Shown: piece by piece, positions 7,969 to 55,203 of the stretch | How positions within the stretch are numbered: position 1 is the first letter of the stretch | Layout: every line of letters starts with the position of its first letter | Assembly: GCA_021813145.1 (NCBI GenBank) | Contig: JAKALS010000001.1 | Location: 134,519-198,518, forward strand | Direction of reading: 5' to 3' | DNA length: 64,000 nucleotides | From: a bacterium | GTDB lineage: Bacteria > Patescibacteriota > Microgenomatia > Levybacterales > UBA12049 | Notes under the pieces: model-generated | Databases searched by the model: none | What the model saw: the letters and a program-made list of their open reading frames with translations, nothing else | What the model was told of the DNA's origin: nothing | Made by a program: the position numbers and the translations under genes

Positions 7969-8445
7969 TTACTTAATGTGTCTTGAGACTCCAAGCTCAA
8001 GAATAGAGGCCATTCTAGCGCCTGTTTCGGCGTCTTGTCCCATTATTGCCGTAAGAAGTACCGGCAATCTTATATCGTGGGGAATCCTATCGCGTATGGC
8101 AATCCCAACGGCGGCTTTTCTTAAATACATATTTCTTTCCCAGCTTTCCCGTTTGGTCATTTCGGCAAGGTCTATAAGGTCTTCCGGGGGAAGAGTCAGG
8201 GAATCAGGTTCTGAAATCTGCTTTTGTAGTTCAAGCATAAGCATACGCATCTCATATTGCCTCGGATGTATTTTTGCAAGCATTTCGTAGTCATATCTGT
8301 TTTCCTGCGGAGGTAAAATCTTTATTTCTTCGTATCGGTTTGCATAAAGAATAGAACCTTCAATGGCTTTATGTGGGGCAAAATTGAGAGAATCCATCTT
8401 TTCAAGACTTTCTATAAGCTCCCTGAAGGGGTTTCTTTCTATCAT
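7969..8445 (-). CDS. Hypothetical cytoplasmic protein
   Basis: 158-aa ORF with normal composition; no recognisable motif. Confidence 0.4.
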   Translation of the reverse strand: MIERNPFRELIESLEKMDSLNFAPHKAIEGSILYANRYEEIKILPPQENRYDYEMLAKIHPRQYEMRMLMLELQKQISEPDSLTLPPEDLIDLAEMTKRESWERNMYLRKAAVGIAIRDRIPHDIRLPVLLTAIMGQDAETGARMASILELGVSRHIK

Positions 8446-15644: not shown

Positions 15645-16385
15645 TTAGGACACAATATCCCGACTTTGCTCGCGCCTGGCGTATGAAATAAATCCTGCAA
15701 TATTTGATTCCACCCAATCTTTAAAAAGATTAGTTTCGAAATCTTGGGTTCCCTCTTTTTTTTCTATCGAGTGGTATGCACCGTATTCTTCTTCGCTATT
15801 AAGATTATAGGTAACACTCGTGCTTCTTGACCTTTCCGTATCCCAGATATCGAATATTCCTCCGAACTCGATCGTTTGGCCTATTTGTCTCCCTTTTTCA
15901 TCAGGATTTCTGCTGTGAAAAAGTGATAATGTTAATCTTTTTCGGTAGGATTCTTCGTAATCTTCTTCGTCTTCGTCTTCTGGTATTTCTTTTACTTCTC
16001 TGCCTTCATCATCTACCGGAAATGTGTCCAAGAGATCTCCTTCTATTTGGGCTATTAAAGTATAATAGTTTCTGTCTTGAGTTCTCCAAGAAAGAAGAAC
16101 CGATGAATGATAGATAAGGCTTTCGCTTTCTTCGTCTACGCGGTACCTGAATGAAGCTTCTTCTTTTACGCGTCCCCTGTTGTTAAGTAAATCCTGGTTA
16201 AATTCGAAAAGGGCAAGTCTTATCCCCGAATCTTCGAGAAATTTTCCCGCCGCGTCCATTTCCTCTTTTGCTTCCTGATCGAGCTCCTGAACTTCCTCCG
16301 GAGGAGAATATCTTTTTGCGTCGGGGAATCTCTGAGGTTTTTCTGCCTCATCCTGTAAATGAAGAATTTTTTCGGGGACTCCCAT
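15645..16385 (-). CDS. Hypothetical acidic protein, paralog family F1
   Basis: See 11703..12335. Confidence 0.45.
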   Translation of the reverse strand: MGVPEKILHLQDEAEKPQRFPDAKRYSPPEEVQELDQEAKEEMDAAGKFLEDSGIRLALFEFNQDLLNNRGRVKEEASFRYRVDEESESLIYHSSVLLSWRTQDRNYYTLIAQIEGDLLDTFPVDDEGREVKEIPEDEDEEDYEESYRKRLTLSLFHSRNPDEKGRQIGQTIEFGGIFDIWDTERSRSTSVTYNLNSEEEYGAYHSIEKKEGTQDFETNLFKDWVESNIAGFISYARREQSRDIVS

Positions 16386-16825: not shown

Positions 16826-17854
16826 TCAGGAGCTAAATAATATTTTAAATGTCGAGCCTTTACCCGGAGCACTTTTTACGATAATCTCAGCTTTGTGTGA
16901 ATCGGCAATCCATTTTGCTATAGAAAGTCCCAGACCTGCTCCGCCGCCAGATCTTGCTTTGTCTGCCTGATAAAAACGGTAAAAAATTTTCTTCTGTTCG
17001 TCTTTTGCTATTCCGATTCCTGAGTCTGTTATAGTAAAATAAGCCTTTCTTTTTCCGCCGGTTTTTACCTGTATTGTTCCTCCTCTTGGCGTATACTTTA
17101 TTGCATTGTCCATGATTATAAGAGCGAGCTGTTTTACTTTATGCATATCCCCTTTTGTTTTTGCTTTTTCCAAAGATATATTCTTAAGGTTCAGTTTTTT
17201 CGAAAGTAATAACGGTTTTGTTTCTTCTATTATTTCCCGAAGTATCTCGTCCAGTCTTACTTCGCCGATTGCGAATTTTGTCATCCCCGCGTCCGCTCTT
17301 GAAAGAGTAAGAAGCTCGTCTACCATACTCGCCATTCTCGAAGTTTCCTTATAGGTTTGTTCTATTACTTTTTTGTAATTCTCTTTAGTTTTGTTTTTAT
17401 TCCTTAACGCAACTTCGGAAGCGGTCTGAATAGCGGCAAGCGGCGTTCTTAGTTCATGCGAGGCGTCGGCTATAAATTCTTTTTGCCTTTGAAAGCTTTT
17501 CTGTATCGGCCGTAAGCTTATTCCTGCCAGGAAAAAACTCAAGCCCCCTCCGAAAAGAAGCACTATATCATCTACAAGGATAAGATCGATAATAAAAGAT
17601 TTTTTAACCTCGTTTATCTGAAGCATTATGTCCTCTTTCTCTTCATTTGTCAGGGTTTTCGGCAAATGATTTCCGTAATCCTGCAGAAGGACTATTCTTG
17701 TTACATCCTGGGTTTCGAGATTATAGATGAATACGGAAAAAACGATAAGAATTACAAAAAGAATAAAAGAATACCACAGGGAAAAGGTTATTTTAGTTTT
17801 CGTAAAAGGACTTATTTCAAGCTTTTTCATTTTGAACTCCCAGTCTATATCCAA
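16826..17854 (-). CDS. Sensor histidine kinase (two-component system)
   Basis: Two TM segments; H-box ADASHELRTPLAAIQTASE; G-boxes ...DSGIGIAKDEQKKIFYRFYQAD...GGAGLGLSIAKWIA... Confidence 0.85.
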   Translation of the reverse strand: MDIDWEFKMKKLEISPFTKTKITFSLWYSFILFVILIVFSVFIYNLETQDVTRIVLLQDYGNHLPKTLTNEEKEDIMLQINEVKKSFIIDLILVDDIVLLFGGGLSFFLAGISLRPIQKSFQRQKEFIADASHELRTPLAAIQTASEVALRNKNKTKENYKKVIEQTYKETSRMASMVDELLTLSRADAGMTKFAIGEVRLDEILREIIEETKPLLLSKKLNLKNISLEKAKTKGDMHKVKQLALIIMDNAIKYTPRGGTIQVKTGGKRKAYFTITDSGIGIAKDEQKKIFYRFYQADKARSGGGAGLGLSIAKWIADSHKAEIIVKSAPGKGSTFKILFSS

Positions 17855-18503
17855 GACCTCTTACGGTCGAAAATAGCGGTCTTTCGTCGGGAAAATCTCT
17901 GTCTATTTTATTCCTGAGTCTTCTTATCAGTACTTCTATTATATTGCTCATGGAATCATACGAATAATCCCACACGTGGTTTAATATCTGTTCCCTTGTG
18001 AGTATCTGGTTAGGATAATGCATAAAGTATTCCAAAAGGGAGTACTCTTTTCCGGTAAGGGATATTTCCCTGCCGTGTCTTTTTACAATATGTGATTCGG
18101 GGTCTAGCTCGAGATTGTCTACGGAAAGTTTTGTCCCTTTTATCGTAGAGCGGCGTATCAGCGCTCTAATTCGCGCCAGAAGCTCTTCAAATGAAAAAGG
18201 TTTTACAAGATAATCATCTGCACCGTGTTTAAAGCCTGATATTTTGTCGTCGAGAGTATCTTTTGCGGTAAGCATTAGTATGGGAGTCAGTACTTTTTCA
18301 TCTCTTAATTTTTCGCATATAGTTATCCCATCCATCTCCGGAAGCATGATGTCGAGGATTATTGCGTCGTAATTCTCGGTTGCGGCAATTTCGTATCCCT
18401 CCCTACCGTTTGCAACCGTATCGACCGCAAAATTTTCGTCGATAAGGCCCGTTTTTAAGTTATCGGCAAGCATCTTTTCGTCTTCTATCAAAAGGATTCT
18501 CAT
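17817..18503 (-). CDS. OmpR-family response regulator
   Basis: MRILLIEDEKMLADNL...ILDIMLPEMDG...; C-terminal winged-helix with ...RGLGYRL. Confidence 0.9.
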   Translation of the reverse strand: MRILLIEDEKMLADNLKTGLIDENFAVDTVANGREGYEIAATENYDAIILDIMLPEMDGITICEKLRDEKVLTPILMLTAKDTLDDKISGFKHGADDYLVKPFSFEELLARIRALIRRSTIKGTKLSVDNLELDPESHIVKRHGREISLTGKEYSLLEYFMHYPNQILTREQILNHVWDYSYDSMSNIIEVLIRRLRNKIDRDFPDERPLFSTVRGLGYRLGVQNEKA

Positions 18504-22719: not shown

Positions 22720-23562
22720 TCAAGGTTGTGCGGCAGAAACGAGGTTTCTTAAAAGCATCGCAACGTTTACGGGGCCTACTCCCCCTGGGACCGGGGTATA
22801 AAAAGAAGCCGTCCCTTTTATATCATCTTCGTCGTAGTCTCCGTGGAATTTCTTGTCTTCTCCCCTATGCATTCCTACTCCTATTAATATTGCGCCTTTT
22901 TTTATTTCGGATTTATTTATAACTTTTTCTTTTCCTACTGCCGATATAACAATGTCGCTTTCTTTTATTATTTTTTTCGGATCTCGTGTTTTACTTGAAA
23001 TTATTTCAGGTTGTATTCCCAGTTTTTTGAACGAACGTATAATGGGTCCTCCTGCCGTAAGGCCTTTTCCCACCACCGTTACTTTTTTAGTTTTTAGCCA
23101 ATTTTCCAATTCCAAATTTCCAATTCCAAATTTCAAATTCGAAATTTTTCTCAGTATTTCCAATACTGCCATTGCGACGGGGGTCTGGAATTCTGAAGTC
23201 GGATTAAATCCGTCTACGTCCTTTTCCGGTGCCACCGTTTTCTCTATTTTTTCTTCGTCAAGGTGTTTAGGCATAGGTCTTTGAACAATTATTCCGTGCA
23301 CGGAATAATCTTTATTCAGTTTGTTTATTTTTGAAATAAGCTCTTCTGTTGAAATTTCCGGGTCTGCTTTTTCAAGAGTTATTTTTACGCCTATTTCTTC
23401 CCCCCTTAATTGTTTCTGTTTAACATAAGAAGCTGAAGATTCATCGTTGGAAAGAAGAATAATATAAAGGTTTGGAATAATTCCCTTTTCTTTGAGGTTT
23501 TGAACTTTTATTTTAAGTTCATTAAAAATTTCCGATGCGATTTGTTTGCCGTCAATTAACAT
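22720..23562 (-). CDS. folD: Bifunctional methylene-THF dehydrogenase/cyclohydrolase FolD
   Basis: MLIDGKQIASEI...YVKQKQ...PEKDVDGF...VVGKG...GDYDEDDIK...TPVPGGVGPVNVAMLL. Confidence 0.9.
   Translation of the reverse strand: MLIDGKQIASEIFNELKIKVQNLKEKGIIPNLYIILLSNDESSASYVKQKQLRGEEIGVKITLEKADPEISTEELISKINKLNKDYSVHGIIVQRPMPKHLDEEKIEKTVAPEKDVDGFNPTSEFQTPVAMAVLEILRKISNLKFGIGNLELENWLKTKKVTVVGKGLTAGGPIIRSFKKLGIQPEIISSKTRDPKKIIKESDIVISAVGKEKVINKSEIKKGAILIGVGMHRGEDKKFHGDYDEDDIKGTASFYTPVPGGVGPVNVAMLLRNLVSAAQP
23096..23150. repeat. Imperfect tandem repeat (ccaattccaaattt x3) inside the folD coding sequence
   Basis: The units ccaattccaaattt / ccaattccaaattt / caaattcgaaattt are visible on the + strand. 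They encode the in-frame peptide ...LKFGIGNLELENW... between the FolD domains. Confidence 0.6.
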
Positions 23563-23623: not shown

Positions 23624-26095
23624 CTATTCTTTTACAATGCAAGTTACGGAAGCGACTTTATCGTCGGGTTTACCGAATCTCATCAGTATTACCCCTTGTG
23701 TGGCGCGCGAAAGCCTGGGAATGGATTCTATCTCGATTTTTACAATCTGCCCCTTTTTGGATGTCATTATAAGCTCGGATGCGGCGTGGGGAATAATCTG
23801 TGCTGCTGCAATTTTTCCCGTTTTTGCCGTAATTTCGGCTACCTTGACTCCCTGTCCTCCCCTTCCCTGCGGGGGGAACTGATCAATTGACGTTTTCTTT
23901 CCCAAGCCGTTTTCCATAATTGTTAAAAGATCTGTTTTGTCTCCTTTAGTGATAACATCCATCTGTATTACCTCGTCATCGGCGGCTATCCTTATTCCCC
24001 TAACTCCCATCGTGTTTCTTCCCATCGGCCTCACCGATTTTTCGTTAAATCTTATTGCTTTTCCGTTTCTTGTAGTTATTAATATTTCGTTTTCGCCCGT
24101 TGTAAAGTTGCTCCAAACAAGCTCATCTTTTTTGTCCATTTTAATTGCCAATATTCCGCTTCTTCTTATGTTGTCAAATTCCGCAATTCTGGATTTTTTT
24201 ACTGTTCCGTTTCTTGTCGTAAGAAATACGAAAGCTCCCTTTGCGTCCTTATGGTACGTTATGAAAGACTCTACCCTCTCTCCAGCTTCTATGTTTAACA
24301 GATTCACTATTGCGGTACCTTTGCTTGTTCTTTGAGATTCGTCTATTTCGTAGGCCCTTAACTGGTAGGCTTTTCCTTTATTTGTAAAGAATAATAGGTT
24401 GTCGTGTGTTTCCGCGTATCTTATGGAAAGTATTCCGTCTTCTTCCTTGGTTGTCATTCCTATTATTCCCTTACCGCCTCTTTGCTGGGTTTTAAAGCTT
24501 AGAAGGCTTTGTCTTTTTATATAGCCGGTGTCCGTAAGAGTTAATACGGTAGGTTCGTTAGGGATAAGATCTTCTTCCGAGAATTCCCCTACTTTACTCT
24601 TGTAGACTTTTGTTCTTCTGGGGTCGTCGTATTTTTTCTTAAGGTTATCAAGTTCGTCTTTTACTACTCCCAATATTTTTGCGGGATGTGCAAGAAGGTC
24701 TTCAAGGTAGGCTATCGTTTCTTTTACCATCTGGTACTCGTCTTCGATTTTTTGCCTTTCCAAAGCGGCGAGTCGTCTTAACTGCATATCCAAAATTGCG
24801 GTTGCCTGAATATCCGAAAGTTTGAATTTGGCCATTAAATTTGTTTTTGCTTCTTCCTGTGTTTTGCTTTCTCTTATCGTCTTGATGACCGCGTCTATAT
24901 TTTCTACGGCGATCTTTAATCCTTCAAGAATATGAAGTCTCGCTTTGGCCTGTTTAAGTTCGAATTCGCTTCTTCTTTTTACAACAAGATATCTGTGTTT
25001 TAAGTATTCCTCTACTATTGTTATAAGGTTTAGCGTCTGGGGCGTTCCGTCTACAAGGGCGACCATGTTCGCAGGGAATGTTGTCTGCAAAGCAGTATAT
25101 TTCCAGAGATTATTCAAAACTTTCTTAGGCGATGCGTCCCTTTTAAGCTCTACTACGATTCTTATTCCGTGTCTGTCGGACTCGTCGCGCAAGTCGGATA
25201 TTCCCTCTATTTTTTTCTCTTTTGCAAGGTCCGCTATTCTCGCAACAAGCAAAGCTTTATTTACCTGGTAAGGAATTTCGGTGATTATTATTGCGCTTTT
25301 TCCCTGTCCTATTTCTTCTATGTCAGCTTTTCCTCTTATTAATATTCTTCCCTTTCCCGTTGTATAAACATTTTTTATTTCCGACCAGTCGTATATTGCA
25401 CCTGCCGTCGGGAAATCGGGACCTTTAATAAATTCCAAAAGTTCGTCCACTGTTACTTCGCTTTTTATGGAGAATGCCGGTTCGGTCGTAATTTTTGTTT
25501 TTCCTATCGCATAAATTGCAGCCTCTACCACTTCCCCCAAATTATGCGGAGGTATTTTCGTTGCCATTCCTACCGCGATGCCTTCGCTCCCCATTAAAAG
25601 AAGGTTTGGCAAAAGGCTCGGGAGAAAAACAGGCTCTTTAAGGGTGGAGTCAAAGTTATCAAGATAGTCTACCGTTTCTTTTTCCATGTCCAGAAGCATC
25701 TCATTTGAAATGGCCGCCATCCTTGCTTCGGTATAACGCATTGCAGCGGGAGGATCACCGTCCATAGAGCCGAAATTTCCCTGCCCGTCTATCAGGGGGT
25801 ATCTCATTGAAAAGTCCTGCGCAAGGCGGACAAGAGAGTCATAAATAGGAACGTCTCCGTGGGGATGGTATTTTCCCATTACTTCTCCGACGATTTTTGC
25901 GCTTTTTGAATACTTCGCGCTGTGGGTTAAGTTCATCTCGTGCATAGCAAAAAGTATTCTTCTATGCACCGGTTTTAATCCGTCGCGTACATCCGGAAGT
26001 GCCCTTGATACGATAACAGACATCGCGTAATCAAGGTAAGCCCGCTTCATCTCCGAGGATATTTCTGTTCTTAAAAGTTTTCCGATTTCAGCCAT
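23624..26095 (-). CDS. gyrA: DNA gyrase subunit A
   Basis: Full-length 823 aa; ...[25 protein letters not shown]... with the active-site region; C-terminal beta-pinwheel repeats. Confidence 0.95.
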
Positions 26096-26135
26096 AGTTT
26101 AATTTTCAATTATCAATTCTCAATTTTCAATAAAC
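26096..26135 (-). promoter_or_regulatory. AT-rich promoter module directly abutting the gyrA start codon (leaderless geometry)
   Basis: On the minus strand it reads TTGAAAATTGAGAATTGATAATTGAAAATTAAACT-ATG. It is nearly identical to the element before pilT at 44824-44858. Confidence 0.4.
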
Positions 26136-26194
26136 TTTTAACGATTCATTGAACAAATCAACGTAAACTGGAAATTGAAAATTGTAAATTGTAT

Positions 26195-28234
26195 TTAGAT
26201 AAGGAAGGATGCAATTAAGAGAGCGACGATGTTTAGGACCTTAATCATAGGATTTATGGCAGGTCCTGCGGTATCTTTGTAAGGGTCACCGACCGTGTCT
26301 CCCGTAACAGCGCTCTGGTGCGCAAAGCTTCCTTTGCCTCCAAAGTTGCCTTCTTCTATATATTTTTTAGTGTTATCCCAGGCAGCTCCTCCTGTTGTCA
26401 TAGATACTGCAACAAAAAGTCCCGTTACTATGCTTCCGATTAAGAGTCCTCCAAGTGCCCTTGGTCCAAGCAAAAAGCCTACGACTATCGGGGCAAGTAC
26501 GGTTATTACTGTAGGCAAAATCATTTCTTTTATAGCCGCTTTTGTAACAATGTCTACGGCTTTTCCGTATTCGGGCTTCGCTTTCCCGGCCATTAAGCCT
26601 TTTATTTCTTTAAACTGCCTTCTTACCTCGTCAACTATGGAGACGCTCGCTTTTCCAACAGCTTCCATTGCAAGGGCTGCAAAAAAGTAAGGAAGAGCTC
26701 CTCCTATAAACAGTCCCACAATTACGCTTGGGTCCGAAAGAGAAAATGCTCCGCCCACAAAACTTGCATGCTGTGATTTTGCAAGTTCCTGTGTATAGCT
26801 TGCAAAAAGAACGAGTGCGGCAAGTCCGGCAGAGCCTATTGCGTAAGCCTTTGTAACGGCTTTAGTCGTATTTCCTACGGCATCAAGTGGATCCGTAATA
26901 TCCCTGACCTTTTGAGGAAGTCCTGCCATCTCGGCTATTCCTCCTGCGTTATCGGTAATAGGTCCGAATGCGTCTATGGCAACTATAATTCCTGCCAAAG
27001 AAAGCATACTCATTGCGGCCAAGGCAACTCCGTAGAGTCCTGCAAAATAAAACGAAACCCAAATAGCAGCGGCAATCAAAAGAATAGGTGCCATTGTTGC
27101 TTTCATGGAAACCGCAAGCCCTGCGATTATATTTGTTCCGTGTCCGGTTGTAGAAGCATTTGCGATTGTTCTAACAGGGCCGAATTTTTTGGATGTAAAG
27201 TACTCGGTAATAACAACCATTCCCAATGTTACCAAAAGCCCTACTATCAAAGGATAGAAGAGATTAAGATAAGGAATAGTATCTATTCCATGAGGAAATA
27301 CTCCCAAAGTCAAAATATAAAATCCTATTAGAGATACGACAACCGCTGCGATAAGTCCCTGGTATAAGGCTTTCATTACGGAGTTTCCCCTAAGCCTTAC
27401 AAACCACGTTCCCACGATGCTTGCCACTATGGAAATTGCTCCTATTAACAAAGGATAAAAAACAACGGCCGGATTATTCGGGAATGAAAGGTGTCCTAGA
27501 ATCATTGCCGCAACGGCCGTTATTACGTATGTCTCGAAAAGGTCCGCAGCCATTCCGGCATCGTCCCCTACGTTATCTCCTACCAAATCGGCTATGACTC
27601 CGGGATTTCTCGGGTCGTCTTCGGGTATTCCTTTTTCTATTTTACCTACCATGTCGGTTCCGACATCTGCGGATTTGGTAAATATCCCTCCTCCAAGCCT
27701 TGCAAAAACCGAAATAAGAGAGCCTCCAAAGCCTAATGCTACCATAGGTTGCAGGTTGCTGTTCATAAACTTTTCCAAATACCAGTAGAATCCCGTCACC
27801 GAAACCAAAGCAAGTCCCGCGACCATAAGCCCGGTTACCGCTCCCCCTTCGAATGCAAGCGAAAATGCGGCGGAAAGTCCTTTTTTGGCCGCTTCGGCAG
27901 TTCTTATGTTGCTTCTTACCGCTACGTTCATCCCTACAATTCCAGCGATTGCCGAGAATATTGCTCCAAGGGCAAAACCCAACGCTGTTACGAGTCCGAA
28001 TGCAAAGTAAAGGACAATAAAGATAAGAAGACCGATAACGGCAACAACGGTATACTGCCTTTTCATATAGGCTGCTGCTCCTTCGGCAATTGCGTCCGAG
28101 ATGTCATTCATTTTCTTGTCGCCTCTTGCTTTGCTTAAGACTCTGTATGTGAGGAAAAATCCGTAGAGTATGGAAAGAAGACCCGCAACAAACGGGATGA
28201 TTAATTTGTGAATAAAGAGCACAGATAAATCCAT
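26195..28234 (-). CDS. hppA: Membrane-bound proton/sodium-translocating pyrophosphatase
   Basis: 679 aa with about 15 TM helices; [28 protein letters not shown] and the AxGxTT-type motifs. Confidence 0.9.
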
Positions 28235-28682: not shown

Positions 28683-29282
28683 CTATATATTGGGTTTATT
28701 GTCCAATGATTGCCAGAGGTACCAACAGGCAATCGACCGGTTGGGTTTCCAGTTTTCACTCAACTGTAGTATCTCTTTTTCGTCGGTTATCCCGTAAAGG
28801 ATTTTTATTGCGCGTCTTAGTCCGAAATCTCCAAGCGAAAAAACATCCGGTCTTTTTAGATTGAATATTAATATCATTTCCGCGGTCCACTTCCCTACGC
28901 CCCTAAGTTTTACAAGTTCCACCACTATCTCTTCATCTTTCATCTTTTTTAATTTTTCTTCATTAATCAGCCCTTTGTCAAAAGCATTCGCAATATCTTT
29001 TATGTATTCTATTTTCCTGTAAGAAATTCCCGCTTTTCTTATTTTCTCCTTGTCCATTTTCAGTATCTGTTTGGGAGTCGGAAATCCGTGGTGGGGTTTG
29101 ATATTAAATAATTCCAGAAACCTGTTATATATAGTACCTGCCGCTTTTACCGAAAGCTGCTGGGAAATAATCGAATCAATAAGCCCTTCAAACAGCGGTT
29201 CATCCCTTTTTAAAAAAGTAGGCTCACCGTACTTTTTCACCAACTCATTAATCTTCCTGTCTTTAAAGGTAATATTCTTCAT
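28683..29282 (-). CDS. HhH-GPD DNA glycosylase (3-methyladenine glycosylase II / AlkA-like)
   Basis: ...ISQQLSVKAAGTIYNRF... and the helix-hairpin-helix LRGVGKWTAEMILIFNLKRPDVFSLGDFGLRRA with the catalytic Asp. Confidence 0.75.
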   Translation of the reverse strand: MKNITFKDRKINELVKKYGEPTFLKRDEPLFEGLIDSIISQQLSVKAAGTIYNRFLELFNIKPHHGFPTPKQILKMDKEKIRKAGISYRKIEYIKDIANAFDKGLINEEKLKKMKDEEIVVELVKLRGVGKWTAEMILIFNLKRPDVFSLGDFGLRRAIKILYGITDEKEILQLSENWKPNRSIACWYLWQSLDNKPNI

Positions 29283-29338
29283 GAAGAAATTTTACCACAG
29301 AAGAGCTGTGCTTGATGCTTGGAGGTATAATATAATAA

Positions 29339-30205
29339 ATGGAATCTAATTACTCTGCCACGGCAGGTGATTTTGAGGCTATAGAAGAGGCCCTGAACTT
29401 CGTTTTCGACCCCGCGTTGCATCACATTTTTAAAAACAGAAAATATTTAAAAAAAATTTCGGTAATATCTTTTGACAATAAATTTTTGTATATCTGGTCC
29501 TTCAAAAAAATAAAAAATTCCAAGCCATGGAAAAAATTACCCCAAAAATGTTTTATGTACAGGATTTACCATAACATCGAAATTACAAAAACCGACAGAT
29601 CCGGTTGGAAAGCCGGAGTTTGGCCGGAATTAATATATGAATACTTACCAAAAGAACTTCTTGGGAACGATTTTGATTATCCTAAGATTTCAGGAAGCCT
29701 ATTAGGAGATTTCCTGAATAATCAGAAAAAAATATATGGAGAAACAGACAACCCTTATGCAATTAAAGAAGGTTATTTGGCGACAATCGTACATGAATAC
29801 GGACATTTGTACTATCAATTGCATAAAAATTGGTGGTTTTCGAATAAAAAATATAATTTGGATTTATTAAAAAGTTCCCTATTCCTTTATGTAAACAAAA
29901 AAACAAGAGTTAGGCCCGATTTATGTATCCCATCTCCATTTTTCTTCTCGGAAATTTTTGCTTTTTGCTGTGAATACGAGGCGGGCAGACTTTTTCTTGC
30001 AGAGTTCAAAAAGATGCTGGATAGATACGTGGCAATAGATCTTAAGGAGGCTATTAATCAAGAAAAGAAAAAAAACTTGGAGTCCGAGGACTCAGTTTTA
30101 AATCAAAATACAACAAACATAATAGCCTTTGTTTGGGGGAAAATTTTGGTAGAAAAATTCCCCAGAACTTGGCCCTCAAAGCTTTTGGAGAAAATAAAAA
30201 TTTAA
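29339..30205 (+). CDS. Hypothetical HExxH-motif protein (putative zinc metallopeptidase-like)
   Basis: TIVHEYGHLYY carries an HExxH motif; otherwise unrecognised. Confidence 0.4.
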   Translation: MESNYSATAGDFEAIEEALNFVFDPALHHIFKNRKYLKKISVISFDNKFLYIWSFKKIKNSKPWKKLPQKCFMYRIYHNIEITKTDRSGWKAGVWPELIYEYLPKELLGNDFDYPKISGSLLGDFLNNQKKIYGETDNPYAIKEGYLATIVHEYGHLYYQLHKNWWFSNKKYNLDLLKSSLFLYVNKKTRVRPDLCIPSPFFFSEIFAFCCEYEAGRLFLAEFKKMLDRYVAIDLKEAINQEKKKNLESEDSVLNQNTTNIIAFVWGKILVEKFPRTWPSKLLEKIKI

Positions 30206-35026: not shown

Positions 35027-35383
35027 TTACCTTTTTGCCCTTTGAGGAAGAGTGGGTTCCCACCTTAATTTATACGTGCTGTTTATTTCATATTTTTTCC
35101 CGAATTCCGTTATTTCCCTTTTATGTAATTCTCTTTCCGAAATCGTTTTTCCCAAACGGTCTTTTTGTGTTACCTTAACTTTATCCTCAGAGGTTACTCT
35201 TAAAGTTGCAGGTATAGGATAAGGCAGTGGGAGTGTCCCATTCTCTAGGGCTGAATAAAATTGCTCATCCGTCATCCTTTCCTGATAATGTATATTTTCT
35301 TCTGTCCCGGGTTCTAAAACTATTCCTCTTCTTACATTTCCAAAAACGGGAACATGGACTTCGTAAATATATTTAACTGTCAT
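35027..35383 (-). CDS. Hypothetical protein
   Basis: 118-aa ORF. Confidence 0.35.
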   Translation of the reverse strand: MTVKYIYEVHVPVFGNVRRGIVLEPGTEENIHYQERMTDEQFYSALENGTLPLPYPIPATLRVTSEDKVKVTQKDRLGKTISERELHKREITEFGKKYEINSTYKLRWEPTLPQRAKR

Positions 35384-35598: not shown

Positions 35599-35934
35599 TT
35601 AGGCGACATCATCAGGGTCGGCTGTTTCTGTTTTTCTATAAAGAAATATTCTATGCGGTTTGCTGCTCCCCCTTTTTTCTATCAGGGCTGTCCTACAGCG
35701 GATATCACCATTTCTTTCCATCTGTATAAGACTCAGGTAAATGATTTCAGGTTCCAGGGCTTTTTCGGCAAGGCCTAACGGATAAAGCTCCGTAACTCTT
35801 TTTCTTATTTCATAACCCGTTACTTCGGTTCTTCCCTCCCCGCTTAGAGATTCAATGGCATCCAGAACTTTAGGTCTTATCTGTTGGGTTGATTTTTGTA
35901 CCATGCTTTCAAGGTTTCTTATAAGCCGTTCCAC
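35599..35934 (-). CDS. Small winged-helix-like protein, paralog family A (copy 1 of 3)
   Basis: RPKVLDAIESL...IIYLSLIQMERNGDI...KPHRIFLYRKTE aligns with copies at 37068..37391 and 39644..39952. Confidence 0.45.
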   Translation of the reverse strand: MERLIRNLESMVQKSTQQIRPKVLDAIESLSGEGRTEVTGYEIRKRVTELYPLGLAEKALEPEIIYLSLIQMERNGDIRCRTALIEKRGSSKPHRIFLYRKTETADPDDVA

Positions 35935-35986
35935 ATCTTAATTATAGCATTGAACAAAGCTCTATAGCTTGCTATAATCCCAAATT

Positions 35987-36313
35987 ATGGCGATTGAGAG
36001 CAGGCCGGAACAAGCTTCGAACGAGGCTTTTGAGAAGGCACCGCTTAAACTGGGCGCGGGTGTAATTCTCATGGAAGGGGTAGGGGGAGAGGCTTACTCC
36101 GTATATCTTGCCTGGAAAGCAGCGAAAGAAGTAAATCAGGCTACCTATTCTCTGGTTCAAGGAAGAGAACATGCATTTGACGCTTCGCTTGCACAGGTAA
36201 AAAAAGATGCGACAAGCGCTTTTGTGGGAGGAGCTCTTCTCAGTCCTTCGTTTGTTATTTTGGGGCTTGCAATTTTAAACAAGTTGACTGCTTCTTCGAG
36301 AAGAAATTCTTAA
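35987..36313 (+). CDS. Hypothetical Ala-rich protein with a C-terminal hydrophobic segment
   Basis: 108-aa ORF; converges on and overlaps 36310..36579 by 4 nt. Confidence 0.3.
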   Translation: MAIESRPEQASNEAFEKAPLKLGAGVILMEGVGGEAYSVYLAWKAAKEVNQATYSLVQGREHAFDASLAQVKKDATSAFVGGALLSPSFVILGLAILNKLTASSRRNS

Positions 36314-37071: not shown

Positions 37072-37391
37072 CTCTCCCTGTCCTCGGGATTGCTTCTTTG
37101 GTACCTGTAAAACCATCTTCCAGTTGGGTCTTCAAGGTTAGGCCTGTAAATCCCTTTTAGTGCTCCCGATTCCCTCATTCTTTCCAGTGCAATATAAACT
37201 TTATATTCCGGAACATTAATTATTTTGGGATCAAGGGACTTCATGGCTTCCAATATTAGATTGGGTGTTGTAGGTAAATCTCTTGCATTTAAAGCATCTA
37301 TTGCATCAAGTACTCCCGGCTTAAGAGCGTCTACCCCATTTAGTCTGTCCGATAGTTTTTGCGACAAATTATTCAGTCTTTCGTTAAACAT
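37068..37391 (-). CDS. Small winged-helix-like protein, paralog family A (copy 2)
   Basis: KPGVLDAIDALNARDLPTTPNLILEAMKSLDPK...YKVYIALERMRESGAL...RWFYRYQ. Confidence 0.45.
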   Translation of the reverse strand: MFNERLNNLSQKLSDRLNGVDALKPGVLDAIDALNARDLPTTPNLILEAMKSLDPKIINVPEYKVYIALERMRESGALKGIYRPNLEDPTGRWFYRYQRSNPEDRES

Positions 37392-37459
37392 GAAGAGGAA
37401 TTATAGCACACAAGCTTTATGTTTGCTTTTAAAATAGGTTTAGTGTATAAGAAAATTTA

Positions 37460-38200
37460 ATGGGCAAGAAAATAATTGCTGTAATGCCTGCCTATAATGC
37501 AGAGAAAACTCTGGAAAAAACCTACAAAGATGTCCCCAAAGGTCTGATTTCCGAATTTATCCTTGCAGACGATAAAAGCTCCGATAGAACAGTGGAAATA
37601 GCAAAAAAACTTGGGCTTACCGTTATTTCACATAAAAATAATACGGGGTACGGCGGAAATCAGAAGACTTGTTATAAAGAAGCTTTAAAAAGAAACGCTG
37701 ATATCATTGTAATGATACATCCCGACTACCAGTATGACAGTTCCCTTACGCAGGATTTAGTGTCTCCCATAGAAAAAGGAAGATTTGACATAATGTTCGG
37801 AAGCAGAATAAGAACAAGACGCGAAGCTTTAGACGGAGGTATGCCTTATATAAAATACCTTATAAACAGGATCATGGCTTTGGTTGAAAATTTAATTCTT
37901 GGTGTAAACTTTACGGAACATTTCAGCGGATTTAGAGCATACTCGGCTGAGGTTTTAAAAATCCTTCCCTTTAATGATTTCAGTGACGATTTTGTTTTTG
38001 ATCAGGAATTAATGATTTCGGCGATTGCCTATGGCTTTAAAATAAGTGAATATCCTGTTCCCGTAAGGTATTTTTCCGAGAGTTCTTCTATACAATTTTT
38101 AGCCGGGAGTAAATTTTTACTTGAAACCATACGTACTCTCTTTTTATTTATACTTTTAAAGCTTAGAATATATAAAAGCAGGATATTTAATTTTAAGTAA
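37460..38200 (+). CDS. GT2 glycosyltransferase (polyprenol-phosphate sugar synthase, Dpm1/ArnC-like)
   Basis: IIAVMPAYNAEKTLEKT...ILADDKSSDRT...; the DxD-containing GT-A fold. Confidence 0.8.
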   Translation: MGKKIIAVMPAYNAEKTLEKTYKDVPKGLISEFILADDKSSDRTVEIAKKLGLTVISHKNNTGYGGNQKTCYKEALKRNADIIVMIHPDYQYDSSLTQDLVSPIEKGRFDIMFGSRIRTRREALDGGMPYIKYLINRIMALVENLILGVNFTEHFSGFRAYSAEVLKILPFNDFSDDFVFDQELMISAIAYGFKISEYPVPVRYFSESSSIQFLAGSKFLLETIRTLFLFILLKLRIYKSRIFNFK

Positions 38201-40805: not shown

Positions 40806-41171
40806 ATGAACAGTAAAACAATAGAAACTATTTCTCCTCAGGTACTTTATATTCTTTTAGCCCTAGCGGTAAAAGAAAGACACGGTTACGAAATAATGAA
40901 GCAGGTTAAAGCGGATTCGGACGGAAAAGTTATTATGGGTCCCGGGACTTTATACGGCGCAATTAAAAGAATGCTTAAGAACGGCTGGATTAAAGAGGCC
41001 GGAGAAAAAGACAGAAGAAAATATTATTCGCTTACTGAACTTGGAAGGAAAAATCTCTCGGTAGAACTTCAAAGGTACGAGGAAATGCTTGAAAAAGCCA
41101 GAAAGAAAAATCTTTTGGGGAATCCGGTAACGGCCAAGTTTGCATTTTCATATGTTAGAAAATCTTTATAA
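40806..41171 (+). CDS. PadR-family transcriptional regulator
   Basis: ...QVLYILLALAVKERHGYEIMKQV...GPGTLYGAIKRMLKNGWIKE...RRKYYSLTELG. Confidence 0.8.
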   Translation: MNSKTIETISPQVLYILLALAVKERHGYEIMKQVKADSDGKVIMGPGTLYGAIKRMLKNGWIKEAGEKDRRKYYSLTELGRKNLSVELQRYEEMLEKARKKNLLGNPVTAKFAFSYVRKSL

Positions 41172-42921: not shown

Positions 42922-43066
42922 ACTAAATATTTATCATCTTCCATTTTCCATTCATTTTTAATTTCCGATTTATCAATAAATAAATCAATGGAGAATAATA
43001 AATGTTAAATGGAAAATAAGATATTTTCCTTGACATTATAACTCATATTTGAATACTATAATAGTA

Positions 43067-44791
43067 ATGCCCAGTGATTTTCAGGCTCCCGCCAAGAACC
43101 AGACTCTAAGCGATATACTTTTTGAAGAAAAGCTCATTACCCAGGAGCAGTATAACGATATCAAGGTAAAAAGTGCCGCGCAAAATCTTTCCGAGGAAAC
43201 TCTTGTTTCGGGGATAAAAACGATAACAGAGGCACAGCTGGCTGAAGCAAAAGCAAAAATGCTTAATATCCCCTACATTGCTTTAGAAGAAACCTCCTTT
43301 TCGCCCCAGGCTTTGGAATATATATCAAGGGCAGTCGCCGAAAGATTTTTACTTATTCCTTTTATGTACGACGATAAGACAAAAATCCTTTCGGTTGCCA
43401 TGAGTAATCCCGTTGATCTTGACGCAATCTCTTTTGTCCAGCAAAAAACAGGTCTTACGATAAAGACCTTTGCAGCCACGCCTTCCGAAGTAACAAGAGC
43501 TATAGATACGCAATACCGTCAGGAAATTGTAGGCGAAGTAGGACAGGCAGTAAAGGAAACAGAAGAGTTTTCAAAAACTAAAACTGTAGATAGTAAAGAT
43601 ATTGCACAAATAATAAAAGAGGCTCCTGTCGCGAAGATAGTTTCGACAATCCTTGAATATGCGGTAAACAGCCGTGCTTCGGATGTTCATATAGAACCAC
43701 AAGAAGACAGAGTGAGGGTCAGATACAGGATAGACGGCATCCTATACGACAGGTTAAGCCTTCCAAAAAGCGTACAGGAAGCTTTAATTTCAAGGATTAA
43801 GATTCTTTCTGATATGAAAATAGATGAGCACAGGACTCCTCAGGATGGTAGGTTTAACTTCAGAGTTGACAATAATGAAGTTGATCTGCGTATCTCGGTT
43901 CTTCCTACGGTTTTCGGAGAAAAAATCGTAATGAGGCTTTTAAGAAAGTCCGGGGGTATTCCAAGTCTCGGGGAGCTTGGTCTTACGGGTACCTCGCTTA
44001 AAAATCTTGAAACCGCGATGTTAAGACCTCATGGAATAATAATAGTAGTAGGGCCTACAGGCTCGGGAAAAACGACAACTCTTTATTCCGTTCTTGCGAA
44101 ATTAAATACAACAAGGGTGAATATTATGACTCTCGAAGACCCTGTTGAGTACCAGATAGCCGGAATAAACCAAGTGCAGATAAACCCTGCAGTGGGTCTT
44201 ACTTTTGCGGATGGATTAAGATCGTTTCTACGCCAGGACCCCAACATAATACTTGTAGGAGAAATCCGTGATAACGAAACAACAGAGTTGGCTATTCAGG
44301 CAGCCCTTACCGGACATTTGGTATTTTCTACGCTTCATACGTCAAACGCTGCCGGTGCCCTTCCCCGTCTTGTAGATCTGGGAGCGGAAAGGTTTTTACT
44401 TGCCTCCACAATGACTGCGGTTTTAGGGCAAAGAATAGTAAGAAAGATCTGCGATAACTGTAAGACTTCATATACTCCCCTTCCCCAGATAGTAGATGAA
44501 ATAAAAAATGTTTTGGGAAGCCTTTATCCGGCGGAAGGAGTAACAAAACTTTATAAAGGTAACGGATGCGATCAATGCGGGTCGTCCGGATATCTTGGAA
44601 GAATAGGAATTTTTGAGTGCCTTCCGGTTACCGATAAAATCACAAAACTTGTCCTTTCCAATCCCGATAGTTCATCAATAGAAAGAGAAGCAATAGCGGA
44701 AGGCATGATTACTATGAAACAGGATGGATACTTAAAAGTTTTGCAGGGAATAACAACGGTTGAAGAAGTTTTAAGAGTAGCACAGGAATAA
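43067..44791 (+). CDS. pilB: Type IV pilus assembly ATPase PilB (GspE family)
   Basis: N-terminal T2SSE_N domains; Walker A VGPTGSGKTTTLYSVL; the tetracysteine motif CDNC...CDQCG. The ATG at 43067 is preferred over the TTG at 43049. Confidence 0.9.
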   Translation: MPSDFQAPAKNQTLSDILFEEKLITQEQYNDIKVKSAAQNLSEETLVSGIKTITEAQLAEAKAKMLNIPYIALEETSFSPQALEYISRAVAERFLLIPFMYDDKTKILSVAMSNPVDLDAISFVQQKTGLTIKTFAATPSEVTRAIDTQYRQEIVGEVGQAVKETEEFSKTKTVDSKDIAQIIKEAPVAKIVSTILEYAVNSRASDVHIEPQEDRVRVRYRIDGILYDRLSLPKSVQEALISRIKILSDMKIDEHRTPQDGRFNFRVDNNEVDLRISVLPTVFGEKIVMRLLRKSGGIPSLGELGLTGTSLKNLETAMLRPHGIIIVVGPTGSGKTTTLYSVLAKLNTTRVNIMTLEDPVEYQIAGINQVQINPAVGLTFADGLRSFLRQDPNIILVGEIRDNETTELAIQAALTGHLVFSTLHTSNAAGALPRLVDLGAERFLLASTMTAVLGQRIVRKICDNCKTSYTPLPQIVDEIKNVLGSLYPAEGVTKLYKGNGCDQCGSSGYLGRIGIFECLPVTDKITKLVLSNPDSSSIEREAIAEGMITMKQDGYLKVLQGITTVEEVLRVAQE

Positions 44792-44823
44792 TTTTTATTT
44801 CATTTTGCAATTCACATTAGCGG

Positions 44824-44858
44824 TTGAAAATTGATAATTGATAATTAATAATTGAATT
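44824..44858 (+). promoter_or_regulatory. AT-rich promoter module directly abutting the pilT start codon
   Basis: TTGAAAATTGATAATTGATAATTAATAATTGAATT-ATG; nearly identical to the gyrA upstream element. Confidence 0.4.
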
Positions 44859-45926
44859 ATGGATATACACGAATTATTAAATTTAACGGTAAAAAATAAT
44901 GCATCCGATTTACATCTTCTAGCGGGAATACCTCCCGTAATAAGAATAGACGGTTCGCTGCGTTATCTTACCAGCTACTCTGCTCTCTCTCATGAGATGG
45001 TGGAAAATCTCGTATTTTCGCTTTTAAACCCTCAGCAGAAAGAATACGTAGTAAATAACAAGGAGCTGGATTTTTCGTTCGGTTTCGGCGGTGGAGATTA
45101 CGGAAACCTGGGAAGGTTCAGGGCAAATGTTTATTACCAAAGAGGCTTTTTAAGCGCAGCCTTTAGATTTCTTCTTCCCAATATAAGGACTATAGAAGAA
45201 CTTAATCTTCCAAAGGTTCTGCACGGCTACGCAGACATGAAACAGGGGTTTGTTCTTGTAACGGGACCTACGGGACACGGAAAATCTACAACAATAGCAT
45301 CAATAATAAATGAAATTAATCTAAAAAGGGCTACGCATATATTAACGATAGAAGATCCCATAGAATATGTCTATCCTGCCGGCAAAAGCATAATTTCCCA
45401 GAGAGAAATGGATATAGACAGCCATTCATGGGCCATGGCATTGAGGTCGGCTTTAAGAGAAGATCCTGATGTTGTTTTGGTAGGAGAAATGAGGGACCCC
45501 GAAACAATGGCAGCGGCAATAACAATTGCAGAGACGGGACATTTGGTGTTTTCCACCCTTCATACAAATTCGGCAGCACAGACGATAGACAGGATAATAG
45601 ATTCTTTCCCCCCAAGTCAGCAAAGCCAGATAAGAACGCAACTTGCATCCACTTTGCGGGGCGTAGTGTCACAAAGACTTTTGCCGATGATTAACGGAGG
45701 AAGGATTCCCGCAGTGGAGGTTCTCATGGGTACCGCTGCTATTGCAAGCAACATAAGGGAAGGAAAAACTCATCTTATAGATTCTGTTATCCAGACTTCC
45801 CAGGATGCGGGAATGATAACGCTTGAGTCCTCCCTTGCTTCGCTTGTTCTCGCCGGAAACATAAGCCTTGAAATGGCAAAAAGCTATGCTCTTCGTCCCG
45901 ATGACTTATTAAGGCTTGTAGGCTGA
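44859..45926 (+). CDS. pilT: Twitching-motility/retraction ATPase PilT
   Basis: ...VTGPTGHGKSTT... Walker A, and the AIRNLIRE-like IASNIREGK region. Confidence 0.9.
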   Translation: MDIHELLNLTVKNNASDLHLLAGIPPVIRIDGSLRYLTSYSALSHEMVENLVFSLLNPQQKEYVVNNKELDFSFGFGGGDYGNLGRFRANVYYQRGFLSAAFRFLLPNIRTIEELNLPKVLHGYADMKQGFVLVTGPTGHGKSTTIASIINEINLKRATHILTIEDPIEYVYPAGKSIISQREMDIDSHSWAMALRSALREDPDVVLVGEMRDPETMAAAITIAETGHLVFSTLHTNSAAQTIDRIIDSFPPSQQSQIRTQLASTLRGVVSQRLLPMINGGRIPAVEVLMGTAAIASNIREGKTHLIDSVIQTSQDAGMITLESSLASLVLAGNISLEMAKSYALRPDDLLRLVG

Positions 45927-53100: not shown

Positions 53101-53589
53101 ATGATTAAAGACTTTACCGGTAATCGTAAATTCTGCCAAACGGCAACAATCAGCAAGCGTAAATCTGCGGGATTTACGTTGATAGAACTTTTGATCGTAA
53201 TTGCAATAATTGGAGTATTGGCAACGCTTCTAATGGTGAATTTTGTAGGCGTAAGACAAAGGGCAAGGGACGCACAAAGAAAATCCGATTTGCGCCAGAT
53301 CCAGTCGGCTCTTGAACTTTATAGAGCAGACCAGGGGTCTTATCCGTCTTCGCTGCCTTCATGTAACGGTTCTGCTTTTTCCGCAAACGGAACTACTTAT
53401 ATGCAGACAATCCCCTGCGATCCGTTAACGGGAACAAATTATCTTTATTCAACAACTGCTTCGGGAGGGTATACTCTTGTAGCCTGTTTAGAGAATCTCA
53501 ATGACAGTCAGAAGGATTCTTCAAATAATTCTTTTTGCTCTGCTCCAACATATCCAAATACAGCATCTTATACAGTTACAAATCCGTAA
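53101..53589 (+). CDS. GspG/PulG-like pseudopilin (second copy)
   Basis: ...KSAG|FTLIELLIVIAIIGVLA...RARDAQRKSDLRQIQSALELYRADQGSYP. Confidence 0.65.
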   Translation: MIKDFTGNRKFCQTATISKRKSAGFTLIELLIVIAIIGVLATLLMVNFVGVRQRARDAQRKSDLRQIQSALELYRADQGSYPSSLPSCNGSAFSANGTTYMQTIPCDPLTGTNYLYSTTASGGYTLVACLENLNDSQKDSSNNSFCSAPTYPNTASYTVTNP

Positions 53590-54093: not shown

Positions 54094-54568
54094 AGGAAAA
54101 CAAAGAGGGCAAACACTGATAGAGGCTCTTGTGGCATTGGGAGCTGCTTCTTTGGTAGTATCGGCAATAACGGTAACGGTCATCACTGCCTTAAATAATG
54201 TCCAGTACACAAAAAATCAGAATCTTGCAGGCCAATATGCCCAGCAGGCTTTGGAGGCAATGAGGCAATTAAGCCTTTCAAACTGGACTTTATTTTCATC
54301 TTACAGCGGTAAGTACTGCATGGACGGAGGAACAACAAGTCTTAGAACTCCAGATCCCGCTTCCGGCGACTGTGGACTGAACTATGGAACTTTCAAGAGA
54401 GAAGTTAGTATTACACAGAACTCGACTTCCTGTTCCAATGCCACTCTTACAACTGCCGTGGTTTCCTGGGGCGACAGTAAATGTCCGTCTACTAATCTTT
54501 ATTGCCATAATGTCACTTTAAGTTCGTGTTACACTAATGTAAACGGAAATATTTTCAGCACGCCATGA
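54077..54568 (+). CDS. Minor pilin (PilV/GspI-like)
   Basis: MGIFIKGKQRG|QTLIEALVALGAASLVV... Confidence 0.5.
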   Translation: MGIFIKGKQRGQTLIEALVALGAASLVVSAITVTVITALNNVQYTKNQNLAGQYAQQALEAMRQLSLSNWTLFSSYSGKYCMDGGTTSLRTPDPASGDCGLNYGTFKREVSITQNSTSCSNATLTTAVVSWGDSKCPSTNLYCHNVTLSSCYTNVNGNIFSTP

Positions 54569-55203
54569 AAATAATTAAAAATTTAAAATTAAGAATTAAA
54601 AATTCTCAACAGGGTTATACGCTGGTGGAGCTCTTAACGGTAATTGTGATAATGGTTGTTGTAGGTTTGATTGTTACAAGTATTATTGTTTCCTCTCTTA
54701 GGGGAACCGGTAAATCTACGGTCTTGGATAACGTAAGAGAGAATGGGAATTACGCAATTTTGCAGATGTCCAAGATGCTTATTTTTGCCCGTGTGTTTAA
54801 CGGTGTAAGCACTGACGGTGTTAATTATACCCCAAACTGCGTTCCCTCCCCGACTCCCGTTCCTTCTCCGTCTTCAACACCTATACCCACTGGGACTCCC
54901 GTTCCCTATAAATACGTAAAGATTACTTCTTTTGATGGAGGAACAACTGTTTTTGGATGTAACGGTTCTACGGATAGTCCGCCCAATACTCTTGCTTCCA
55001 ACTCTTCTTCTTTAATAGATACTACCACAATATCTTTTGACCCTTCTCTTTGCTATTTCACCTGTTTCCAAAATACTTATACCGAACCGCCTACAATAGG
55101 AATAAACTTTACGCTCTCCCAGCTTACCACCAGTAAATTTACGGAAAAGAATGCAACTCTACCGTTTTCTACTTCTGTTACGCTTAGAAATATAGGTTAT
55201 TAG
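54565..55203 (+). CDS. Minor pilin (PilW/GspJ-like) with a PT-rich segment
   Basis: ...SQQG|YTLVELLTVIVIMVVVGL...; the PT-rich segment is PSPTPVPSPSSTPIPTGTPVP. Confidence 0.5.
   Translation: MKIIKNLKLRIKNSQQGYTLVELLTVIVIMVVVGLIVTSIIVSSLRGTGKSTVLDNVRENGNYAILQMSKMLIFARVFNGVSTDGVNYTPNCVPSPTPVPSPSSTPIPTGTPVPYKYVKITSFDGGTTVFGCNGSTDSPPNTLASNSSSLIDTTTISFDPSLCYFTCFQNTYTEPPTIGINFTLSQLTTSKFTEKNATLPFSTSVTLRNIGY

Follow-up and report, generated by a model that had tools for sequence, protein, structure and literature searches.

The 64,000-nucleotide window analyzed here (GenBank assembly GCA_021813145.1, contig JAKALS010000001.1, positions 134,519 to 198,518 of the forward strand) is part of a 248-kb metagenomic contig (ENA ERZ27237541, k141_1100656) and encodes GyrA and PilT proteins whose closest relatives are from Candidatus Levybacteria (Microgenomates; candidate phyla radiation (CPR)/Patescibacteria). 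It contains three short A/T-rich heptad arrays, two of which abut the start codons of gyrA and pilT, while the third is an inverted copy at the 3′ end of hppA, antisense to both hppA and gyrA. On the minus strand hppA is followed, after a 99-nt gap, by gyrA and then folD; on the plus strand a 67-nt gap separates pilB from pilT, and pilC comes next. The features at these loci are:

23624..26095, minus strand: gyrA, 823 aa (Pfam DNA_topoisoIV and DNA_gyraseA_C)
26096..26132, minus strand: gyrA-proximal heptad array, TTGAAAA TTGAGAA TTGATAA TTGAAAA TTAAACT, then the gyrA ATG (26095)
26133..26162, minus strand: non-repetitive centre between the inverted arrays, the loop of a predicted intergenic RNA hairpin, with a small internal hairpin
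26163..26193, plus strand: inverted heptad array, AACTGG AAATTGA AAATTGT AAATTGT, 1 base from the hppA stop codon (26195–26197)
26195..28234, minus strand: hppA, encoding a 679-aa membrane H+/Na+-pyrophosphatase; it lies upstream of gyrA, in the same orientation
43049..44791, plus strand: pilB-type assembly ATPase (MshEN and T2SSE), upstream of pilT on the same strand
44822..44858, plus strand: pilT-proximal heptad array, (GG)TTGAAAA TTGATAA TTGATAA TTAATAA TTGAATT, then the pilT ATG (44859)
44859..45926, plus strand: pilT, 355 aa, retraction-ATPase type (T2SSE)

The start-proximal arrays read TTGAAAATTGAGAATTGATAATTGAAAATTAAACT (26130..26096, minus strand) and TTGAAAATTGATAATTGATAATTAATAATTGAATT (44824..44858, plus strand), each with the ATG directly after it, and the inverted copy reads GGAAATTGAAAATTGTAAATTG (26163–26193, plus strand). 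Sequences and placement are exactly as given in a first-pass annotation of this DNA, which regarded them as a conserved ~35-nt module with about 30 of 35 positions identical between gyrA and pilT (30/35 as computed here), but overlooked the period-7 tandem structure of each copy. Each of the three repeats a single heptamer in tandem, (TTGANAA)4–5, with units TTGAAAA, TTGAGAA and TTGATAA, i.e. (A/G/T)AATTGA. Tandem Repeats Finder (TRF) reports period 7 with 4.4–4.6 copies and 83–88% matches at 26101–26131, 26163–26193 and 44824–44855; the pattern AATTGWNAATTGWNAATTG has eight matches in the window (0.25 expected), and the motif TTGAAAATTGAKAATTGATAATT, with up to three mismatches, occurs within the window just at the gyrA and pilT loci and in none of 100 shuffles. 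With head-to-tail 7-nt copies above chance, the arrays have the form of long simple sequence repeats (SSRs). Each unit carries TGA, such that three units give a stop in every forward frame, and in-frame stops (TAA, TGA) two codons before the ATGs exclude a translated upstream extension of gyrA or pilT. No Rfam family matches anywhere in the window at the gathering score. A Fur-box-like reading (GATAAT repeats) was set aside, as these are direct repeats with 7-nt rather than 6-nt spacing and without an inverted half-site.

The repeat unit also accounts for the promoter-like geometry reported earlier. A consensus scan recovers TTGAAA—17 bp—GAAAAT in the gyrA array (9/12; second hexamer ending at 26102) and TTGAAA—17 bp—AATAAT in the pilT array (10/12), each ending 6 nt from the ATG, so both sites have a sigma-70 geometry (16–18 bp spacing, with the −10 hexamer 6–8 nt before the start). 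However, any (TTGANAA)n array reads TTGANA-N17-GANAAT, recurring every 7 nt, because 3×7+2 equals 6+17. The conserved spacer, previously singled out as something promoters do not normally show, is kept merely through this periodicity, since six of every seven positions in such an array are set by the unit. The chance that the last −10 lands 6–8 nt from the ATG at both genes is ~(3/7)², or 18%. Both pairs of hexamers are weak and without a TG extension, whereas typical promoters here are TTGACA/TGnTATAAT.

The window genome nonetheless looks largely leaderless and poor in Shine-Dalgarno (SD) motifs, as judged from its start regions. A TATAAT match of at least 5/6 ends 6–8 nt before the start in 18 of 68 window genes (8 at 6 nt, 3 at 7 nt and 7 at 8 nt; mode 6 nt); the corresponding figure for internal control points is 2 of 204. 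TTGACA lies 17 nt upstream in many of the 18, and the −10 is often TGnTATAAT (e.g. 7969–8445, 12332–12874, 15645–16385, 17817–18503 and 35027–35383 on the minus strand, and 40806–41171 on the plus strand). SD-like motifs are present in 6 of the 68 genes; none was found upstream of gyrA or pilT, and the 99- and 67-nt gaps hold no other good promoter. The suggestion that the gyrA and pilT mRNAs are leaderless is consistent with this genome-wide pattern, but the arrays of relatives are not promoter-like (see below). A literature search on leaderless transcription in CPR or Microgenomates found no relevant paper. Three divergent gene pairs 52–68 nt apart (35934–35987, 37391–37460 and 29282–29339) each contain two face-to-face promoter-like sites with TATAAT 6–8 nt before each start, and these gaps look like highly compact promoter regions for leaderless transcription in both directions.

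The same unit is present in many other phyla. The pattern TTGANAATTGANAATTGANAATT was scanned in one genome per GTDB species, and all cross-phylum figures given here are among the matches listed. These come from Bacteroidota (many Prevotella, Bacteroidales), Cyanobacteria and Acidobacteriota; from the CPR groups Saccharibacteria, Parcubacteria, Moranbacteria, Gribaldobacteria, Absconditabacteria and Peribacteria; and from Planctomycetes, Ignavibacteria, Chloroflexi and a few Firmicutes. The arrays have 3–14 units and frequently start at a stop codon (..TAA TTGA..), and some terminate on an ATG (..GAGAATT ATG). Compared in the best register with 141 TTGANAA-unit arrays from unrelated phyla, the gyrA 35-mer has a median identity of 28/35, with 20 of the 141 at 30/35 or more; Prevotella, cyanobacteria, Acidobacteria and others thus match the gyrA copy as well as pilT does. 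Over the first four units, the 25/28 identity of gyrA and pilT is the mode for unrelated arrays. Since unrelated arrays match equally well, the likeness of the two copies provides no evidence for a shared module; a conserved module or homologous duplication was rejected, and the reusable 35-nt cassette of the first-pass annotation is not supported.

Across phyla, TTGANAA arrays are an intergenic simple repeat whose tie to start codons is weak at most. Between same-strand genes, 34 arrays are in sense and 25 in antisense orientation, and another 12 lie between convergent and 6 between divergent genes. None of 135 arrays is inside an open reading frame (ORF) in sense, as expected from the TGA in each unit, and 26 are inside one in antisense. 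An ATG falls within 3 nt of the array end in 10 sense and 3 antisense cases, and 13% have a start within 10 nt. The earlier proposal that a lack of positional bias would mark the motif as coincidence therefore has a divided outcome: every intergenic context with a weak start bias across phyla, but a clear concentration at start codons in the Levybacteria lineage (described below).

Orthologous sites in relatives show that the window arrays are lineage-specific insertions or expansions and not conserved regulatory modules. In the closest GyrA relative (L203, 93%) just 12 nt separate the hppA stop from the gyrA ATG, so the ~87-nt block of two arrays and a unique centre is an indel of the window genome. 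A 48-nt hppA–gyrA gap without an array is found in L140 (GyrA 90%), degenerate AGAAATT heptads in L142 (88%), and two or three TAACTAA units ahead of the gyrA ATG in L204 and L205 (87%). The upstream region of L128 (76%) ends with aaattgaaaattaactt ATG, and an ATG-proximal AAAATTAACTT is common to window gyrA, L140 and L128. The gyrA upstream regions of other Levybacteria contain a palindromic gtcatcctgaa... element, which occupies the position of the window's heptad arrays and makes this intergenic stretch a hot spot for repeats of different classes. The element, of the type tgtcatcctgaa...ttcaggatgaca / gtcattccgagcg...cgggatgac, lies upstream of gyrA in several Levybacteria:

L125, ~9700–9797: palindromic element upstream of gyrA
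L130, ~2080–2157: palindromic element upstream of gyrA
L132, ~150–262: palindromic element upstream of gyrA

An array persists at the pilT site among relatives, but with turnover of both its unit and its copy number. L206 (PilT 95%) has a perfect (AAATTAG)4.7; L212 (93%) has flanks identical to those of L206 around 2.7 units, a 14-nt copy-number difference; a degenerate AATTAGN array precedes pilT in L207 and L211 (93%), and a perfect (TAAATAG)6.7 does so in L209 (89%); L208 and L210 are without an array. This turnover is the behavior of a slippage-driven repeat rather than of a sequence-specific element. The promoter scan finds no site in the L206 array and a single site, upstream of the array, in L209. 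Promoter elements are thus not conserved at the orthologous positions, given the 12-nt gap of L203 and the heptads of the pilT relatives, which argues that promoter function is not why the arrays exist. Conservation upstream of gyrA and pilT orthologs had been offered as a check on the module, and the array is not conserved; the suggestion of a site for a common regulator fares no better, with close relatives having either no array or other units. Individual genomes seem to favor their own unit across several loci, even at orthologous sites: AATTGAN in the window (three arrays), AAATTAG, AAATTTC, AAATTAA and ATTAAGG in L206/L207, TAAATAG in L209 and TAACTAA in L204/L205. Three such genomes co-occur in sample ERZ27237541.

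Heptad arrays of several units cluster within ~10 nt of starts in the Levybacteria, on either side of the ATG and notably in the type IV pilus cluster. TRF finds 24 period-7 arrays in 372 kb of Levybacteria DNA, 13 of which are within 9 nt of a start codon; these 13 correspond to ~6 independent sites, and ~6% would be expected there if arrays were random relative to true gene starts. Arrays at starts in the lineage are in sense orientation. Those in and near pilin genes, together with an array within folD, are:

53076–53117, plus strand: heptads across a prepilin start codon, ATTGTAG ATTAAGG ATTGTAG ATTAATG ATTAAAG ACTTTAC; the ATG of the gene (53101..53589) falls in the fourth unit
54573..54604, plus strand: AATTAAA-type array of 4.6 copies, coding for the minor pilin leader MKIIKNLKLRIKNSQQG|YTLVE (gene 54565..55203)
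L206, 16515–16546: (AAATTTC)4.6, coding for the leader MNKISNFKFQISNKEKG|FTLVE
L206, 17057 and 18512, and L207, 18491: further pilin-leader arrays downstream of the ATG
L206, 16496–16560, 17050–17100 and 18506–18545; L207, 17504–17560 and 18487–18530; and the window, 54565–54615: prepilin leader regions with heptads
23099..23147, minus strand: 7/14-nt repeat GAATTTGAAATTTGGAATTGGAAATTTGGAATTGGAAAATTGG in frame inside folD, coding for SNLKFGIGNLELENW

Three pilin leaders in L206 carry arrays. Five L206 arrays lie within ~11 kb of the pilus cluster, including two in the divergent holB–pilB gap (8066–8124), (TTTTGAA)3 and (ATTTAGG)4.9. An array in a coding region cannot be its own gene's leaderless promoter, and the common denominator of the sites is the translation-initiation region. 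Among 96 homologues of the window minor pilin, leader lengths cluster at 9–11, 16–19, 24–26 and 32–33 aa, with modes of ~10, 17, 25 and 32 aa; the 7-aa steps equal three heptads. Example pairs are MKIKNSEKG with MKIKNLGLRIKNPQKG and MRKRILNFQSG with MKKRIFNFQFSIFNSESG. Heptamer slippage with retention of in-frame lengths would give such steps, and the pattern suggests that minor pilins may be switched by frame shifts.

The folD repeat has no in-frame stop because most of its units have TGG in place of TGA. The FolD loop concerned, between ..AVLEIL and WL..KK.VV.GKG, is hypervariable, and its length differs widely in the clade (L129, L132 and L154); in L132 and L129 it has apparent in-frame copies of intergenic palindromic elements (e.g. 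NEMSEAISGIAASPSAPRND). It would be a protein loop that absorbs repeat DNA.

The inverted copy and the gyrA copy do form an imperfect palindrome, as first described, whose arms are 75% complementary over 32 nt, or 89% over 18 nt. On the hppA–gyrA transcript strand the inverted array (26163..26193) is the 5′ arm of a predicted hairpin (−21.9 kcal/mol, z = −3.0) that consists of a T-rich arm, a 39–40-nt centre and an A-rich arm, and stops ~13 nt short of the gyrA AUG. Its A/U-rich stem leads into AAAAUUAAACU, without a U-run, and 25900–26400 contains no terminator-like site. The pilT copy has no inverted partner and no structure (z = 0.16). RNAs spanning an array and its start have predicted folding energies of −0.7 to −4.2 kcal/mol over 54–71 nt; array folding is no weaker than that of composition-matched shuffles, and 'specially unstructured RNA' was rejected as a description of the arrays. 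Inverted TTGANAA pairs are frequent in Acidobacteriota, Bacteroidota and others (e.g. L056, 4883–4990; L115, 111–200; L118, L063, L094, L038 and L044), and several surround a GC-rich hairpin, resembling array-extended bidirectional terminators. In those other phyla the A-rich arm comes first in 11 pairs and the T-rich arm in none, opposite to the hppA–gyrA pair, whose T-rich arm is first.

The three copies are probably heptanucleotide simple-sequence repeats, (TTGANAA)4–5, of a class that arises and changes by replication slippage. A/T-rich heptads made by slippage would be tolerated at the few places open in a compact genome, and perhaps mildly favored at starts, where they would provide an A/U-rich, weakly structured and SD-free translation-initiation region; the stop that they place in all three sense frames would keep them out of gene bodies. 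The TTGANAA unit would also recreate a sigma-70 promoter, with leaderless gyrA and pilT transcripts as a possible by-product of the arrays rather than their cause, and the inverted pair would put a long A/U hairpin in any read-through hppA–gyrA transcript. Any effect of the arrays on expression would be secondary.

Several observations weigh against this explanation. The window arrays are imperfect, and they are identical in the independent samples available (three for pilT, two for gyrA), such that no ongoing slippage is seen; whole-unit copy change is observed at the pilT sites of relatives (4.7 versus 2.7 units) but not among these two or three samples per array. A genome-specific unit, AATTGAN three times here and other units in sister genomes, goes beyond plain local slippage. 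Mismatches between neighboring units outside the search seed fall at unit position 5 in 82 of 240 cases, which hints at a constraint on AATTGA, although ascertainment bias is possible as the seed had N at position 5 alone. The weak folding that would favor arrays at starts may be mere AT-richness, and the promoter and 5′-untranslated region (5′-UTR) roles suggested for the arrays are putative, being read from the sequence.

A functional leaderless promoter, in which gyrA and pilT would each be driven by the array as their sigma-70 promoter and transcripts would begin with the A of the ATG, is unlikely. The scan recovers its elements at both genes, their 6-nt distance from the ATG is the genome mode, neither gap offers an SD motif or another good promoter, and the ATG-proximal AAAATTAACTT recurs in L140 and L128. 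The geometry is inherent in any TTGANAA array, however, and landing in the 6–8-nt interval at both genes has the chance of roughly 18% given above; the hexamers score just 9/12 and 10/12 and lack a TG extension; a promoter would not fit into the 12-nt gap of the 93% gyrA relative; the heptads of pilT relatives at the same site are not promoter-like; heptad arrays also occur antisense at the hppA 3′ end, in folD and in pilin coding regions; and orientation is little biased across phyla (34 sense, 25 antisense and 12 convergent). Repeated binding of a trans-acting factor that tunes initiation, either on DNA (a regulator or nucleoid protein) or on RNA (S1 or a cold-shock protein), is less likely still. 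The unit is constant at six of its seven positions and varies at position 5, and not only within the seed; units are genome-specific (AATTGAN in three arrays here; AAATTAG, AAATTTC and AAATTAA in L206/L207), lineage arrays are start-proximal and sense-oriented, and a similar proposal has been made for TAACTGA repeats (PMC4679880). The factor is hypothetical, no regulation common to gyrA and pilT is obvious, other units or none are present at orthologous sites, arrays occupy every context and orientation across phyla, and the position-5 result is subject to the ascertainment noted above.

Equally improbable is a contingency locus, in which copy number would alter the promoter or 5′-UTR length of pilT and gyrA, or the frame of pilin leaders, and so switch or tune pilus expression in an episymbiotic CPR bacterium. 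A CTCTT repeat lies in the signal-peptide codons of Neisseria opa, an analogue of such a locus, and another is the (ATCTTTC)n 5′-UTR repeat of Haemophilus influenzae hmw (PMC12721329). The type IV pilus cluster holds a concentration of arrays, some ahead of pilB and pilT and others within three L206 pilin leaders, L206 and L212 differ by 14 nt in copy number, relatives have perfect arrays of 4.6–6.7 copies, including in pilin 5′ coding regions, and pilin leaders step by 7 aa. Opposed to this, the gyrA and pilT arrays are imperfect, have 4–5 units and do not vary between independent samples, gyrA has an essential housekeeping role, the assembled sequences show neither a pilin allele out of frame nor length heterogeneity within a sample, and the known heptamer switch has at least 11 units. 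The related idea that start-codon heptads, upstream of pilT and pilB and in the cleaved minor-pilin leaders, where gain or loss of one unit would shift the frame, are a mutable expression switch for the CPR type IV pilus is unlikely; it would make the pili of these episymbionts phase-variable or antigenically variable. A small mobile or hairpin element, of the miniature inverted-repeat transposable element (MITE) or repetitive extragenic palindrome (REP) kind, or an hppA intrinsic terminator whose arms are heptads by chance, is very improbable. Compared with the 93% relative, the ~87-nt block is an insertion or deletion; its arms are inverted and its predicted hairpin is stable, and TTGANAA/TTNTCAA inverted pairs flank terminator-like GC hairpins in other phyla. 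But a mobile element should be present in multiple copies, and the centre is unique, with no second copy in the window or in ~2 Mb of collected DNA; against an intrinsic terminator are the lack of a GC stem and U-run and an arm order reversed relative to all 11 pairs from other phyla, and the pilT copy has neither partner nor structure.

With slippage-derived repeats as the favored explanation, the loci provide no new promoter cassette or regulon-wide operator, the 7-nt repeat alone yielding both the spacer conservation and the promoter geometry. They do extend start-proximal heptamer repeats to CPR bacteria, with a new unit, and show that (TTGANAA)n arrays are widespread across phyla. In a leaderless-looking, SD-poor genome, such arrays sit where promoter and ribosome entry would overlap. 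On the expression-switch reading, the preferred heptamer of each genome (AATTGAN here; AAATTAG and AAATTTC in sisters) would hint that a trans-acting factor is involved, or that units are copied by more than plain slippage, and the same process might also be behind the cross-phylum spread of TAACTGA/TAATTGA-type repeats. The concentration in the pilus cluster and the 7-aa steps of pilin leaders make a contingency role worth testing: were the pilus-cluster arrays length-variable in populations, CPR bacteria, whose pili mediate host attachment, would for the first time show signs of SSR-based phase variation. Literature searches yielded nothing on AATTGAN arrays, nothing on comparable repeats in CPR and nothing on phase variation by SSRs in CPR/Patescibacteria; those on the exact repeat strings returned only two unrelated C. 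elegans papers.

Several known systems resemble these arrays in part. Leaderless promoters of the Actinobacteria and Deinococcus type have a −10 box ~6–8 nt before the start codon. The window arrays are like them in having a −10-like hexamer 6 nt before the ATG, no SD motif and a matching genome-wide pattern, and unlike them in that the hexamers are within a repeat, weak and not conserved in orthologues. Heptamers of the STRR class were reportedly described in cyanobacteria by Mazel and colleagues in 1990. Heptamers are the commonest of the long SSRs (5–11-nt units) in prokaryotes, which are mostly intergenic and phylogenetically patchy and have been ascribed to polymerase slippage (Mrazek et al. 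2007, as summarized in PMC4679880). These long-SSR surveys are not known to describe start-codon adjacency, an AATTGAN unit or CPR genomes.

For the hppA–gyrA hairpin, the nearest studied analogue is the 5′-UTR of H. influenzae hmw1A/hmw2A, where (ATCTTTC)n separates the promoter of a surface-structure gene from its start codon and changes in copy number alter expression; the repeat is transcribed and is one arm of a long RNase III-processed 5′-UTR hairpin (PMC12721329). The hmw repeats have at least 11 perfect units, a G-rich second arm and an experimentally shown function, whereas the window has 4–5 imperfect units, an inverted array as the other arm and a structure predicted from sequence.

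Closest among known systems are the direct repeats with the heptamer unit TAACTGA that were described in marine Beggiatoaceae, Cyanobacteria and Bacteroidetes (MacGregor 2015, PMC4679880). These are intergenic, in 2–6 or more copies, and most lie just a few nt ahead of a start codon, where SD motifs are scarce; they put stops in the forward frames, leave the reverse strand open, have occasional in-frame copies in ORFs, differ by 7-nt indels between strains and are sporadically distributed, with no function assigned (PMC4679880). The window arrays share the 7-nt tandem structure, the intergenic and forward start-proximal placement, the lack of SD motifs, the stops in all three forward frames with an open reverse strand, the occasional in-frame copy within an ORF and the sporadic distribution, but not the exact unit: TAATTGA (= TTGATAA) is one base from TAACTGA, and mixed TAACTGA/TAATTGA arrays are present in L065 and L083, while in the Beggiatoa genome TAATTGA is found in doublets only (PMC4679880). 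They differ further in the AATTGAN unit with its free fifth position, in the host, a CPR group (Levybacteria) not included in PMC4679880, in their sigma-70 promoter mimicry in an apparently leaderless genome, and in the pairing of one array with an inverted copy. By sequence, the window unit is a sibling of the TAACTGA repeat rather than the same repeat.

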